Below, in pieces: positions 25,196 to 31,717 of a stretch of 32,000 nt of DNA. The stretch is from Candidatus Saccharimonadota bacterium (GTDB lineage Bacteria; Bacillota_I; Bacilli_A; Mycoplasmatales; Hepatoplasmataceae): NCBI GenBank assembly GCA_027925325.1, contig AP027133.1, positions 574,195-606,194 of the forward strand, written 5' to 3'. Positions within the stretch are counted from its first letter, which is position 1. The number at the start of each line of letters is the position of its first letter. The notes below the pieces were generated by a model. That model was not told the origin of the DNA, made no database searches, and worked only from the letters and a program-made list of their open reading frames with translations. The position numbers and the translations under genes are program-made.

Positions 25196-27139
25196 TTAAT
25201 AATCCAATTTGGCATATAAAGCATTTTTTTCAATAAATTGCTTTCTAGGTAAAACAATTTCACCCATAAGTTCAGAAAAAACACGATCTGCATCTTGAGC
25301 ATCTTCAATTTCCACAAGTAATAATTTACGATTAGAAGGATCCATTGTTGTTTCTCATAATTGTAAATCATTCATCTCTCCCAATCCTTTATATCTTTGA
25401 ATTGAAATTTTAGTATTTTTTTCTAATTTACTTAAAAATTTTTCTTTTTCAGAATCTGTATAGATATATTGTGATGATTTTCCTTTTGTTATTTTATATA
25501 AAGGAGGTTGAGCAATATAGAGATGTTTATTTTCAATAAGATCTCTAAAATAACGAAAAAAGAATGTAAGTAAAAGTGTTCGAATATGTGAGCCATCAAC
25601 ATCGGCATCGGTCATGATAATTATCTTTCCGTATCTAATTTTTGTTAAATTAAAATCTTCATTAATCCCTGTTCCGATCGCTGTAATCAATGCATTTATT
25701 TCATTATTATTAAATAACTTATCAATTCTTGATTTTTCAGCATTTATAACTTTTCCTCTTAATGGTAAAATCGCTTGAATTTCACGATTTCGTCCCATTT
25801 TAGCACTACCACCGGCAGAATCTCCCTCAACAATAAAAAGCTCTGTAATTTGATTATTTTTGGAAGAACAATCTGCTAATTTTCCTGGAAGAGTACTAGA
25901 AAATAAATTGTCTTTTCTACGTGTTAATTCTTTTGCTTTCTGCGCAGCAAGTCTTGATTTTGATGCCTGTTTAATTTTAGCAATCATAAGTTGGGCTTGT
26001 GTTGGATTTTCTAATAGATAATTTTCAAATTGCTCCGAAATAATGTTATTTACAATTCTTCGAACTTCGATATTAGCAAATTTACCTTTGGTTTGTCCTT
26101 CATACATCGGATCAGGGTGCTTTACAGAAATTACAGCGGTAAGACCTTCTTTTACATCATCTCGAACAAAAATTTCTTGTTCTTTTTTTGGTAATTGTTC
26201 CTTTACATATTTATTAATGATTCTTATAATAGCATCAAAAAATCCTTGAACATGCGTTCCTCCCTCAATTGTTGCAATATTATTAACAAATGAAAGAATT
26301 TTTGGTTGATAAGCTGTTGTATATTGTAAAGCAACGTCAACGGTAATATCTTCTTTTTTAGCAGATGAATATATCACATCTTTTGTAATTAATTCATAAC
26401 CTTTATTTAAATAATTAACAAAATCAATTAAACCATTTTTAAATTGATATTTTATTTTTTTAGAATCTATGTCACGATTATCGGTAAATTCAATCAGTAA
26501 ATTTTTATTTAAATAAGCATTTTCTTTTAATCTTTTGTTAATTATTTCAAAATTAAAACTATCTACCCCTTCATTAAAAAGAAAAAAATCAGGTTTGAAA
26601 GTTACTTTTGTTCCTTTGTGTGTGGTTTCACCTAAGTTTTGCAAACCACTTGATTTTGTTCCTCCATTTTCAAATAAAATTGAGTATCCTTGCTTATTTC
26701 GAAAAGAGACAACTTCAAGAAATTCAGATAAGGCATTTACAACCGAAGCACCTACACCATGTAATCCCCCAGAAACTTTGTAACCTGATTTATCACCACC
26801 AAATTTACCTCCAGCGTGCAATTTCATAAATACTGTTTCTAAAGTTGAAACATTTGTTTTTGGATGGATTTCAACAGGAATCCCTCTTCCATCATCAATT
26901 ACGGTAATTGATTCATCGGGATTTAAAATTACTTCTATTTTAGTAGCATAATTTGCGAGTACTTCATCAATTGAATTATCAATTATTTCTCATACTAAAT
27001 GATGTAATCCTTTATCATCAATATTACCAATATACATTCCTGGTCTTTTACGAACAGCCTCTAATTCTTCTAATACTTGGATTGAATTTTGATCATAATT
27101 ACTTTCTATTTCTTTAGTTGTTTCATTTTCCTTTTTCAT
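25196..27139 (-). CDS. gyrB: DNA gyrase subunit B.
   Basis: Track ORF 25355..26827 extends in frame through TGA codons up to the ATG at 27139 (MKKENETT...[14 protein letters not shown]...[15 protein letters not shown]) and down to the TAA at 25196 (...[17 protein letters not shown]...). Both ends were checked codon by codon. It has the Toprim EGDSAGG and [11 protein letters not shown] motifs. Length is 647 aa. Confidence 0.96.
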
Positions 27140-27147
27140 ATTATTTC

Positions 27148-28167
27148 CTAAATTTCAATAAATTGAATTTTTTGTTTCAAATTTTGATCGACTTTTGCTT
27201 TCGGTGATGTAATAAAAGAATTTAAATTTTTATCAAGTAAAATTTTTAATAATAAATTTGAATTTTTTTTATCTAATTCTGAAAAAATATCATCCAAAAG
27301 TAAGATAAATTCTAAATCATATTGCTCTCTTAAATATTCAATAAAAGAAATTACAAGCAATAAAATTGCCATTTTCATGTGTCCATCTGAAGAAATATTT
27401 AAATAAAATTCTTTATCATATTCAATAATATAATCATCTTTTGTAATTGTAATTGGTGGTTTTAAGAGTAGATTTTCTAAAATATAATCTTTTAAAATAA
27501 TTGCTTTTTTGTAATATAATTTTAGTTCTTTATTTAGATAATTTTTTGTATTTTTCTGATAAAAAAAGTTTATGTTTTCAACTTCTTTTTCTCTTATATT
27601 GATTATCTCTTCTTCAAGATCTTTTAATGAATTAACAATTTCTGATTTTAAAGATCGATTTATAACAATTGAATTATTATTTATATCTTGCAAAGAAATC
27701 AATAATTTATCAAAATCTAATAATAACTTTTCATAAATTTTGTGATCTTGTTTAATTAACATATTAATTAAACTTTGTCTTGTTGTTTTTTGATATTTAA
27801 AATTATTGATTAATTTATTATTTATAAAAATTGGAATTGAAACAATTGTCTTATTAATACCGATATTTTCTGTCCCATTAAGTAAAACTTTTTTTTTAAT
27901 TGGAGATAATTCTACATCCAATTCCTTTCAAAGTTTATTAAAATCCAATAATTTTAAATTAATTTTTGCAAGTTGTTGTTCGTTTTTGATTAAATCTTGA
28001 AATTTCTTTGTTCGAAAAGAGGAATTTTCCATTGCAAAAAAAAAGGCCTCTAAGATACTTGTTTTACCGCTGCCATTTTCGCCTAAAAAAACATTTATTT
28101 TTTTTTTAAAATAAATGTTTTTTTCACTATGATTGCGAAAATTTTGTAAATTAATTTCTTTAATCAT
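27148..28167 (-). CDS. recF: DNA replication and repair protein RecF.
   Basis: Track ORFs 27148..27921 and 27928..28167 share a frame and are joined by the TGA at 27928. Motifs: N-terminal INLQNFRNH, Walker [16 protein letters not shown] and Walker [13 protein letters not shown]. Confidence 0.85.
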
Positions 28168-28235
28168 TTGTTATAAATTATACCTTTTTTTAGATTATTA
28201 AAGATAAGTTAATTAATAATGATTAAAAAGAAAAA

Positions 28236-31200
28236 TTATCCTTCTTTTTTCGCTTTATATTGAATTACAGCATGTTTTATAAGTTCTGTTGTCATCGTAA
28301 ATAAAGCTGAAAATATTCAATAAATTGCCAATAAAACAGGAACAATTAATCCCATAAAAACAAACACACCGATCATAATATTTTGTGTTTTATTTTGTTT
28401 TTTCATCGCCTTTTTTGTCTGTTCATCAATTCTTTTTATTCCTTTTCGCTTATTTGAAAGCATTCTTGGCAATTTACTTGATAATCCTTGTGAAAAACCA
28501 ACAGCAACACCAACAAATAAATAAGCAAAAAATAAACTTCCGACACTAAACATTCCCGAAATTGCAGAAATTGAAAATGAAAATTGACCTACTGAGATAA
28601 TTTTATAAGCTGGTAAGGCCGAGATAATTATCCAAATTGAAAGAAAAATTGGCATCGTCACAAAAATCGTTCCTAAAGATGCAAATGGGTTAACATTATT
28701 CTTACGATAAAGAGCCATTATTTCTTGTTGCTTACGCATTTTCATTTGTTTATTCTTTTTATCATATTGTTGATATTTGGCATTTATTTGTGCAACTTGA
28801 GTCTGAACTTCTTGCATTTTTGATTGATTTTTATTAGAACCAAAAGACATCGCATATCCAATTCCTCTTAAAAGGAAAGTAATAATAAAAATTCCAATAA
28901 TTACCCCTCAAACAGCACCTACAGGAAAGATTGATTGAATGATAATTGATAATTGTGCTAATGGTCAAACAAAAAGCCCATACATCGGTCCATAAGATGG
29001 ATCTCATGCATCTTGTCAATCACCAATATCATCTGTAAAAATTTCATGATTATTATTTAAGCCATCTCCTTCGGCTTGACTTAAAATACGATAAAGAGAG
29101 GCTGTAATTCCAAAATTAGCAGTTGTTTCAACCAATGGATCAATCAAACCAGATTGAGAATCAGTATCAAAAGTTGTTCCTATACCGATAAAAGGAGTAT
29201 AAAAATTAACATCACCAGTAAGCGAACTTTTCTGTTTTAAATCCGTAACTTCATCACCATTTTCATCATTATAAATAATTTCATATCCAATATTTATATA
29301 TTGACTATAATCAATTAAATAATTGGCAATTAATTCTTCTCCTTCCACCGTAAATAAATTACTTAAATTATTATTATCGAAATCATCACTATTATCAAAG
29401 AAAAGAAATGCGTTGGGATCAAAATTATTAGCAGCATCTGCTTTATTTGATGCTAATTCGATTATTTGTCAATCTCCATTTTGATCTTCTTCCATAAATG
29501 CTCATCCTGAAGAATCAGTTCGATTAGATTGCCCAGCTTTTGTTCCATCCATTCAATCAGATGATCTTAATACTGATACATTTTCATAAGTTGTAAAATC
29601 ATCTTCATCGCTTAAATCATAATCATAATTACTTTGATATGTTGTTTGACTATTATAAGTCTCATTTTCATAATTATATCCTGTTATTAGTTGCATTGAT
29701 TTTTGACTAGGATAAAAAACCTCTGATGGATCAGAAACACTACGAGAATTAACAACATTATAAGATGTACCAACGATTAAATCGACAGAATCTATTCCAT
29801 TTCCCGTAGAACTATTAAGTAAATAAGGTGAAGTTAAAAAATTAAATCCAGTTGTATAATCAACATTTCCAGCATTAGGAGGACTACTATCTTCATAAAA
29901 AATATAACTAATAATTCCATCGACAGTTTTATTGACATTAGCAGGAATCGTAATATCTTCAATCGTTTGATCTTGATCACTATAATCTAATTGATAGTCA
30001 ATTACTTTTTCAAAATCATATTGAAAATTATCTGTTAAAACCGAAATTTGATCACTAATTGAATTAAATTCGCCTCCTGTTTGAGAATTAACTCCGCCAT
30101 AATAAGCTAAAATATTTGTATATAACTTAACTTCACTTTGATAAAGATCATATTTATCATTACTTACTTCTAATGAATCCTCATTTTGATCCTCAATTAA
30201 TTGATGAGAATAAGTAACACTATCAACAGGAACTCAATTTATTGGATCAATTAAATCAGAAGGACTAACATTACCTACTTGATGATAACTATCAATAAAT
30301 TCTTGTTCTGAATTATTATTTAGAGATGAGAAATCGGTTAAAGGACCGGTATAGTAAGCAAATCCACGTTGCACAGTTGAATAATAATCATCACCATTTA
30401 CAACTTCATCACCATTACTATCAATTACATTATCATTTTCATCATAAGAAAATCCTTGAATATATGCAAGAAAATCATCACTATATAAAGAATTATTATC
30501 AGCAAGATAAGCATAAAATTCAACAGCATCGATCTCTTGATTGTCATTTCCATAAGGATTTGTGACTTCATTATAAATATCATATTCTTCTAAATTAAAT
30601 GTAGTATCTTCTAATCCGTATTGATAAAATTGCTTCTTAACATCACTTGAGAAATAATCAATATTAAAAGGCATTATTAAATATTGATCATCTCTTAAAT
30701 CAACATTTGTTCAATCATATCCTAAAAAAGCTGTTGAATAATAAGTACTAAAAGAAAGATTAGCGACTGATGATAATAAAGAAACTTGATAATCAGCTAT
30801 ATTTTCACCAGGAGTAGTAAATAAGTTATAATCAATATCTTCAGGATCATAATTTTCATTATTTATCCCTAGTAAGTAATTGTAATTAGGTCGATATATT
30901 TCAAATGGCAATAAGAAATTATCCTCAATTATATCATCAGTAAATTGATTATCTCCTGTTGCAACAATTTGATAAGAAAATGTTGATTTTTGTCCTTTAT
31001 ACATATTAGGAACAACAGATTGCTTATTTCCATAAAATTCAAGTCCTCTAGAAACCTGTTGTGTTGTAGTATGCATAAACTCAGCAGCACAACCTCAAAG
31101 GGTAACAACTGTTAAAAAAGAAAATAAAATTCACTTACTATACTTTCTAATTCATTTTAAAAATTTGCTAAAAGAAAAATGACCAGATTCATCTGCTTTC

Positions 31201-31238
31201 TTTACTTCTTCATAAAATGAGTGATTACCTTTTGCCAT
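28236..31238 (-). CDS. yidC: Membrane protein insertase YidC, 1000 aa. It has a lipoprotein-type signal sequence and an unusually large (~700 aa) extracytoplasmic D/N/Y/S-rich domain before the Oxa1/YidC core.
   Basis: Track ORFs 28317.., 29016.., 30234.. and 30711.. all share one frame. I read every codon of the gaps (28851-29015, 29349-30233, 30675-30710, 31077-31238, 28236-28316) and found only TGA, with no TAA or TAG. The start is the ATG at 31238 (a TAG lies upstream). The signal and lipobox read ILFSFLTVVTLWGCAAE. The C-terminal core (FVWPLAQLS...MQEVQTQVAQINAKY...KQQEIMALYRKNNVNPFASL...MPIFLSIW) is YidC-like. It follows rnpA in the conserved order. Confidence 0.8.
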
Positions 31239-31243
31239 CTATT

Positions 31244-31570
31244 TTAATTTGCGATAAATTTATTCAGTAAATTTATAATTATTTGTTCCTTTTTTTTAAA
31301 ATCAAGATTATAAAAATTTGGTTTTGCAATTATTACTAAATTCTTCTTTAATAAATTTAAATTAGAGAATTTTGCAATTATATTTTTAATTTGTCTTTTT
31401 TGTTTATTTCGAAAAACGGCATTACCATGCTTTTTTGGAATTGATATTCCTATCTTTGTTTCATCGGCAGAAAAATAAAAAATTAGAAAATATTCATTAT
31501 AAACCTTTTTGCCTTCCATCAGAATTTTTTGAAATAATTGCTTATTTTTTAAAGAGTAAATCTTTTTCAT
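31244..31570 (-). CDS. rnpA: Ribonuclease P protein component.
   Basis: Intact 108-aa basic ORF directly downstream of rpmH, with GISIPKKHGNAVFRNKQKRQIK (RNR-motif region). Confidence 0.85.
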   Translation of the reverse strand: MKKIYSLKNKQLFQKILMEGKKVYNEYFLIFYFSADETKIGISIPKKHGNAVFRNKQKRQIKNIIAKFSNLNLLKKNLVIIAKPNFYNLDFKKKEQIIINLLNKFIAN

Positions 31571-31582
31571 TAGTTGATTTTA

Positions 31583-31717
31583 TTAATTAGTTAATTTTTT
31601 TCGACCTTTATTTCTACGAGCTTTTAAAATTTTTTGTCCATTTTTACTTGCTTTACGTTTGCGGAAACCATGCGTTTTTGCTTTCTTTCGCTTATTAGGT
31701 TGGTAAGTTCGCTTCAT
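31583..31717 (-). CDS. rpmH: 50S ribosomal protein L34.
   Basis: It is not in the track because it is under 60 aa. The minus strand from the ATG at 31717 to the TAA at 31583 reads [44 protein letters not shown] (44 aa). An AAGGAG ribosome-binding site lies upstream. Confidence 0.93.

Follow-up and report, generated by a model that had tools for sequence, protein, structure and literature searches.

The 32,000-nt window analysed here, which is the end of the single contig of a 606,194-bp Hepatoplasma genome, encodes on its minus strand a YidC/Oxa1-type membrane protein insertase of 1000 amino acids (aa), about 690 of which lie between its first transmembrane segment (TM1) and its insertase core. 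With high confidence, this protein is regarded as a single functional YidC whose loop between TM1 and TM2 has been expanded to an ectodomain of ~690 aa, and this architecture as one that holds across the family Hepatoplasmataceae. YidC/Oxa1 insertases are universal and usually compact, and the role of the large outside domain of Gram-negative YidC is poorly understood. The parts of the gene and of its predicted product, in positions of the window, are as follows.

28236..31238, minus strand: yidC, a 1000-codon open reading frame (ORF) with an ATG start and its stop codon at 28236-28238; the sole YidC of the genome
31134..31238, minus strand: predicted cytoplasmic N-tail, residues 1-35, net positive beside TM1, with a conserved H-S-F-Y-x-E motif
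31077..31133, minus strand: TM1, a predicted signal anchor, residues 36-54, ending in L47-W48-G49-C50; the Cys50 codon is at 31089-31091
29004..31076, minus strand: acidic, predicted extracytoplasmic domain, residues 55-745; an orphan with conserved scaffold blocks and lineage-specific insertions
30879..31076, minus strand: membrane-proximal start of the ectodomain, residues 55-120, with conserved G65, E67, Y69 and N78 and predicted beta strands
28239..29003, minus strand: conserved segment before TM2 (W-x-D-A-W ... Y-G-P-x-Y-G), YidC/Oxa1 five-TM core and cytoplasmic coiled coil, residues 746-1000
28278..28901, minus strand: match to Pfam 60KD_IMP, residues 780-987
28866..28868, minus strand: codon of R791, an invariant Arg aligned to the groove Arg of Bacillus halodurans YidC2

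Translated with table 4, the minus strand between 28236 and 31238 is one 1000-aa ORF from an ATG, while table 11 splits the same frame into pieces of 177, 110, 47, 48, 146 and 121 aa. An earlier, sequence-only reading of this DNA had claimed a single code-4 frame without TAA or TAG over 3 kb and had named such an in-frame codon as a refutation; none occurs internally among the 1000 codons, and the frame ends in TAA. At the composition of the region (28.5 % GC), one codon in ~15 would be expected to be TAA or TAG, and the probability that a 1000-codon frame stays open by chance is ~10^-29.6. The frame contains 13 TGA and one TGG, that is, TGA serves for 13 of the 14 Trp codons of the gene and for all seven (7/7) in the ectodomain. 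Six TGA-coded residues (W36, W48, W741, W745, W777 and W974) occupy alignment columns with Trp in all, or in at least 90 %, of 56 family YidCs, which supports the assignment of TGA to Trp. The yidC frame is real and TGA is read as Trp in it; gene callers using the standard code would shatter the gene.

The possibility that the long frame is an artefact, composed of a lipoprotein gene and a normal yidC, or resulting from a frameshifted pseudogene or an assembly error, can be given almost no weight. The standard code does break the frame 13 times, but 13 of 13 breaks are TGA, several of them on invariant Trp columns, and the unbroken frame, with its chance probability of about 1e-30, recurs in 14 independent genomes and in about 50 database proteins. 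There is also no conserved internal Met near the core from which a shorter YidC could start, M752 being L or M in relatives, and the core by itself would be without TM1. Two genes, a pseudogene and an assembly error are ruled out at the sequence level by the frame together with the relatives.

The occurrence of this architecture was followed by a six-frame search of 40 relatives, among which are 13 other Hepatoplasmataceae genomes (14 with the present one). Matches to the N-terminal region and to the core lie 2.5-3.2 kb apart in 13 of the 13 other family genomes. In relatives, two distinct genes at this position had been named as a finding that would speak for separate proteins; instead, yidC is one uninterrupted table-4 frame in 14 of 14 family genomes, with ectodomains of 409-749 aa, and no family copy has a frameshift or stop. 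The comparison of YidC length that the sequence-only reading had recommended gives 783-1061 aa for Hepatoplasmataceae versus 354-645 aa for YidCs outside the family, five of which were read through. About 50 further family YidCs, 783-1002 aa long, are present in public protein sets, as is a sister clade whose YidCs have 554-636 aa; the NCBIfam PRK02201 YidC sub-models extend over 380-715 positions. The earlier statement that Firmicute and Mollicute YidCs usually have about 250-400 aa is only partly true, as the lengths outside the family, in the sister clade and in the longer sub-models exceed that range. The Hepatoplasmataceae YidCs are nevertheless the longest encountered in this analysis. 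Relatives with the same ORF have 79-83 % identity and 1001-1002 aa; the closest database protein (83 % identity, 1002 aa), from 'Ca. Hepatoplasma crinochetorum', is annotated yidC. Two family YidCs, P0011 and P0032 (846 and 923 aa; HPAVJP_5940 of 'Ca. Hepatoplasma vulgare' and TYPL_5280 of 'Ca. Tyloplasma litorale'), are deposited as 'hypothetical protein' despite a PF02096 match, and such entries could be annotated yidC, although the practical effect would be small.

The C-terminal quarter of the protein has the features of an ordinary insertase, and the earlier expectation of a normal YidC/Oxa1 core is confirmed by a PF02096 (60KD_IMP) match over residues 780-987 that scores 87.3 bits against a cut-off of 35 bits. 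The TIGR03592 model also matches (92 bits versus a cut-off of 84.3). A phmmer search aligns residues ~750-982 to B. halodurans YidC2 (3WO6/3WO7; chain residues 11-228 of 242, E 5e-12), covering all five TMs. In this alignment R791 pairs with the Arg of the I-L-I-R segment of BhYidC2, and it is invariant in the 56 family sequences. The Arg of the hydrophilic groove is Arg72 in BhYidC and Arg366 in EcYidC (PMC4252904). Hydropathy peaks are found at 770-791, 860-875, 898-911 and 959-978, and a full-length model, itself of low confidence, has helices at 775-797, 799-846 (the coiled coil), 854-880, 901-931, 939-965 and 968-999 and retrieves 3WO7 with Foldseek (E 2.8e-5, TM-score 0.56 on the target). 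No second YidC was found in the genome by tblastn or by a search with the Pfam model, so the enlarged protein would be the working insertase. The 1000-aa protein is the only YidC of its genome and, from that status and the strong purifying selection on its core (see below), is predicted to be a functional insertase.

At the other end of the protein, the N-tail is conserved at H6, S7, F8, Y9, E11 and K14 and is Lys-rich next to TM1. The NCBIfam Mollicute YidC models match from residue 7 onwards (7-98), so that their match includes the N-tail. TM1 is the sole N-terminal hydrophobic segment, with a hydropathy peak at ~45, and the next hydrophobic segment occurs only at ~770. The L47-W48-G49-C50 motif is invariant in 56 of 56 family YidCs; Trp at position -2 is atypical of the lipobox consensus [LVI][ASTVI][GAS]C. 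The outgroup YidCs have V-T-A-C, I-W-G-C or F-V-G-C in its place. Firmicute YidCs are lipoproteins, and the LWGC motif fits descent from a YidC of this lipoprotein type.

The lipoprotein-type signal of the sequence-only reading can be retained in part only. In its favour are the invariant motif and the presence of Lgt (PF01790), above cut-off in 14 of 14 family genomes. On the other side, LspA was not found in the present genome with PF01252, and TIGR00077, a model that is positive in 5 of 5 other Mollicute families of the order, detected it in none of the 14 family genomes. Moreover, the segment ahead of the hydrophobic core is 35 residues long and conserved, unlike the short, non-conserved n-region of a lipoprotein. 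With Lgt kept throughout the family, no LspA found and the N-tail conserved, cleavage at Cys50 is unlikely, and so is a cleaved lipoprotein signal. An uncleaved signal anchor fits these data better, in which TM1 is probably retained and Lgt may add a diacylglyceryl group to Cys50. The observation of Lgt without LspA refers to positions 442328-443065 of this contig, outside the window, and to the genomes of the 13 relatives. A crude pattern scan, which is not a dedicated predictor, looked in the genome for [GAS]-C after a hydrophobic N-terminal stretch and retrieved only YidC and a multi-pass channel-like protein; looser lipobox scans added nothing convincing. That YidC may be nearly the sole lipobox protein of the genome is a lead from these crude scans.

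Between TM1 and the core, residues 55-745 consist of D (11.4 %), N (10.1 %), S (9.6 %), Y (8.4 %) and T (6.9 %) as their prominent residues, with an isoelectric point (pI) of 4.05, 120 D+E versus 22 K+R, and without Cys. The acidic, D/N/Y/S/T-rich extracytoplasmic domain of ~700 aa described earlier is thereby substantiated in composition and in extent (~690 aa from TM1 to the core). The positive-inside rule and the known topology of YidC place these residues outside the cell. Their position between TM1 (36-54) and the core (~770), on the trans side and with no hydrophobic segment in between, is that of P1, the large outside domain of Gram-negative YidC.

The acidity is shared with other proteins of the organism. 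The predicted proteome is bimodal in pI (median 9.2), 30 of 472 ORFs have a pI below 4.6, and most of the large ORFs among them begin with an N-terminal hydrophobic segment. The acidic ORFs include giants of 1649 and 2107 aa; examples lie at 235692-249588, 264777-270698 and 296961-301566 of the contig. Taken together, these ORFs suggest that the surface or secreted proteome is strongly acidic. Since it is common to the large, N-terminally anchored proteins of the organism, the acidity would signal an outside location rather than a function specific to YidC; as judged from composition, extreme acidity marks the anchored, presumably surface proteins of the organism generally. Within the family, ectodomains have a pI of 4.05-4.9, apart from database protein P0047 (928 aa), the sole member with a basic ectodomain (pI 8.5, 75 D+E versus 79 K+R). 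The suggestion of a Ca-binding module is not supported: the ectodomain has four EF-hand-like loops versus 1.5 +/- 1.2 in shuffled sequences, and no such loop is kept beyond the closest relatives.

The remote-homology search that had been proposed for the ectodomain gave no relatives outside the family YidCs. Residues 1-740 have no Pfam or NCBIfam domain match beyond the YidC termini (residues 7-98 with the Mollicute YidC models), and Pfam scans of 54 family members and 13 sister-clade YidCs found the core only, plus weak membrane-family noise. When 1.84 billion representative proteins were searched with phmmer without filters, the matches to the ectodomain were all YidCs of this family, and no stand-alone homologue of any length was among them. 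Self-comparison by BLASTP gave no internal repeat, tblastn against the genome gave no paralogue, and a profile search of the PDB with the protein returned core matches only. Profile-profile comparison with the sister clade of 554-636 aa aligned the two only from the pre-TM2 segment onwards.

Structure prediction suggests that the ectodomain is folded rather than disordered. AlphaFold2 with 16 sequences gave a poor ectodomain in the full-length model (mean predicted local distance difference test, pLDDT, 45.6), while with 54 sequences the ectodomain alone reached a predicted template modelling score (pTM) of 0.71, its pLDDT averaging 63.5 and amounting to at least 70 for 299 residues. The latter model is mixed alpha/beta, and its surest parts are beta strands at ~65-117 near TM1, ~482-496, 579-592 and 629-688. 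It has no match among solved structures (Foldseek, VIA), and the ESM Atlas gave no usable feature match (its own model had a pLDDT of 0.37, with all TM-scores at or below 0.32). A new fold is probable, though a long model of medium quality is no proof of one.

The two ends of the loop indicate how the ectodomain arose. Residues 7-98 and 736-989 are the only parts covered by the NCBIfam Mollicute YidC models, and the WGC and G-x-E-F-Y motifs are common to family and outgroup YidCs. Because both loop ends are homologous to those of ordinary Mollicute YidCs, the extra mass is not a gene fusion; it represents growth of the outside loop between TM1 and TM2 that other Mollicute YidCs possess as well. 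Well-occupied scaffold blocks in the family alignment (55-120, 161-180, 361-380, 481-520, 561-640 and 681-745) are set apart by low-occupancy, lineage-specific insertions, and N375, Y461, G490, G578-W579 and G685 stand out as landmarks. As read from the alignment, the ectodomain grew by insertions into a shared scaffold.

Selection on the two parts of the protein differs strongly. Among the three closest genomes, identity is 66-82 % for the ectodomain versus 93-95 % for the core, and the Nei-Gojobori ratio of nonsynonymous to synonymous substitution (dN/dS) is 0.25-0.34 and 0.03-0.06, respectively; between genera, identity falls to 16-25 % in the ectodomain and 56-70 % in the core. The insertase part is conserved under strong purifying selection, and selection on the ectodomain is purifying but relaxed. 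Together with the scaffold blocks, these values imply that the ectodomain is constrained, though far less than the core.

The neighbouring genes follow a conventional order, with the following features around yidC.

31583..31717, minus strand: rpmH (ribosomal protein L34), the first gene of the rpmH-rnpA-yidC block
31244..31570, minus strand: rnpA (RNase P protein), ending 5 nt before the start codon of yidC
27148..28167, minus strand: recF, the downstream neighbour of yidC
25196-27139: gyrB, after recF

A further large ORF is also found downstream of yidC. The rpmH-rnpA-yidC block is the classical arrangement adjoining the replication origin. In Firmicutes a gene of the jag/khpB type usually follows yidC; here yidC is followed directly by recF and gyrB, and the 68-nt gap (28168-28235) contains no ORF of at least 60 aa. 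Elsewhere on the contig, outside the window, three tandem paralogous ORFs at 324174-327364 encode proteins of 346-349 aa with four to five hydrophobic segments and near-identical N-terminal regions.

Mollicutes have no wall, and the ectodomain would therefore be naked on the cell surface, above the exit site of the insertase. It might act there as an accessory outside platform that, without taking a catalytic part, would hold on to or shield partner surface proteins or those segments of substrates that have been exported. This is tentatively put forward as the likeliest role by analogy with E. coli P1, a domain in the same position that is poorly conserved and largely dispensable for insertion. 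In E. coli, insertion can proceed without P1, which interacts with Sec partners, and the interface between P1 and the TM region is conserved (PMC4252904). Several points weigh against the explanation given here as a whole. The role is proposed by analogy, and the data do not separate a chaperone platform from a host-facing or structural role; a domain under weak constraint could likewise have diverged this fast and collected as many indels. The extracellular location is drawn from the positive-inside rule, the known topology of YidC and the composition, and a highly divergent LspA could have evaded both models. In addition, the 696-residue model is of medium confidence and too large for sensitive fold search, so that a P1-like beta-sandwich could hide in it.

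This last point touches on the proposal that the ectodomain is a divergent homologue of Gram-negative P1, the beta-supersandwich that docks onto SecDF/SecYEG, retained and inflated in this family. The topological position between TM1 and TM2 is the same, the best-predicted parts of the model (~65-117, 482-496, 579-592 and 629-688) are rich in beta structure, and conservation is highest at the membrane-proximal ends, which recalls the P1-TM interface of E. coli (PMC4252904). However, PF14849 (YidC_periplas) gave no match at E<=10 in residues 1-740 and none at E<=1 in 54 family members. The PDB profile search retrieved the core only, and E. coli and T. maritima YidC chains were absent from the ectodomain fold searches (Foldseek, VIA), although with a 696-residue model of mean pLDDT 63.5 such a domain could be missed; the full-length model aligned to E. 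coli YidC with a root-mean-square deviation of ~22 A. Furthermore, SecD/SecF (PF02355) was not found in this 96.5 %-complete single-contig genome, while the control was positive in 12 of 14 reference genomes, so the docking partner used in E. coli is missing. Since fold searches are insensitive for a model of this size, homology to P1 is weakened by these results, no more, and it is considered improbable.

Two further explanations were weighed. The ectodomain could be a host-facing module (an adhesin, a shield or a cation-binding surface) for which YidC, essential and never lost, serves as an anchor. A domain naked on a wall-less ectosymbiont of the isopod midgut gland, with 120 acidic residues and with the fast evolution and indels often seen in surface proteins, would suit such a role, and the genome paper proposes other large surface proteins as adhesins (PMC10928387). 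But no adhesin-type domain or repeat was found, the EF-hand-like loops are neither significantly enriched nor conserved, the acidity is not specific to YidC, and a dN/dS well below 1 gives no whole-domain sign of diversifying selection; this explanation comes second to the platform among the possible roles but is itself doubtful. Alternatively, the 690 residues could be near-neutral bloat, a weakly constrained loop that is tolerated without a function of its own. The low identity between genera (16-25 % versus 56-70 % in the core), the range of ectodomain length (409-749 aa) and the lack of any known domain would all be expected of such a loop. Yet it is retained in 14 of 14 genomes of only 0.5-0.8 Mb, in which the gene takes up ~0.5 % of the genome; its dN/dS of 0.25-0.34 is clearly below 1; the landmarks N375, Y461, G490, G578-W579 and G685 are conserved; the model with a pTM of 0.71 points to a fold; and frameshifts and stops are absent. 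Bloat is rated as quite unlikely, third in order and ahead of homology to P1.

A more far-reaching combination of these ideas would be that the ectodomain has a previously unseen fold, that the insertase doubles as a surface platform receiving acidic surface proteins or contacting the host, and that Lgt is left with YidC, an uncleaved, lipid-modified anchor, as its main client. As a whole, this combination is unlikely, but if YidC were the main client, this would explain why Lgt has survived although the 0.6-Mb genome has hardly any other lipobox protein.

The gene itself is not new, as it is already deposited and annotated yidC in one genome. Literature searches on YidC in Mycoplasma and other Mollicutes yielded nothing on enlarged ectodomains, and the Hepatoplasmataceae genome paper does not mention yidC (PMC10928387). 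Very small genomes (0.5-0.8 Mb) have independently built and kept an outside domain twice the size of P1. Because it would face the lumen of the host gut gland, this ectodomain is well suited to asking what an insertase gains from a domain outside the cell; it may also represent a new fold and could serve as a surface marker of isopod and crustacean symbionts. A family in which Lgt is kept, LspA was not found and YidC may be almost the sole lipobox protein would also bear on the decay of lipoprotein processing in reduced genomes.

Among known systems, Gram-negative YidC (548 aa in E. coli; 3WVF, 6AL2) has the same general plan as the Hepatoplasma protein, with an N-in TM1, a large ectodomain, a pre-TM2 segment and a five-TM core with the groove Arg, and its large domain is likewise poorly conserved relative to the core. 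Unlike P1, however, the ectodomain here has ~690 rather than ~320 aa and is strongly acidic; the organism has neither periplasm nor outer membrane, and a lipobox-like Cys stands at the end of TM1. The chlamydial-type YidC (NF002168, 795 positions) is also unusually long and host-associated, but it has no similarity to the present protein outside the core, where residues 756-993 match model positions 554-779.

The closest solved core is that of the Gram-positive, lipoprotein-type YidCs (B. subtilis SpoIIIJ/YidC2; B. halodurans YidC2, 3WO6/3WO7), which also have a Cys straight after the N-terminal hydrophobic segment. In those proteins, of ~260 aa in total, the lipobox leads almost directly into the core, whereas here 690 residues intervene, 35 conserved residues precede TM1 and the family is without detectable LspA. 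Further counterparts are the long Mollicute YidCs of PRK02201 (NF002567, NF002568 and NF002569; 607-715 positions), together with the clade of 554-636 aa. The NCBIfam equivalog cut-offs are not reached by the Hepatoplasma protein (at best 221.9 versus 452 bits for NF002567, and 110-177 versus 342-882 bits for the others of NF002566-NF002570). These long Mollicute YidCs share with it the N-tail, TM1, the juxtamembrane motif, the core and an enlarged loop, but the ~640 residues in the middle of the present protein are unrelated to theirs, and its loop is two to three times longer.

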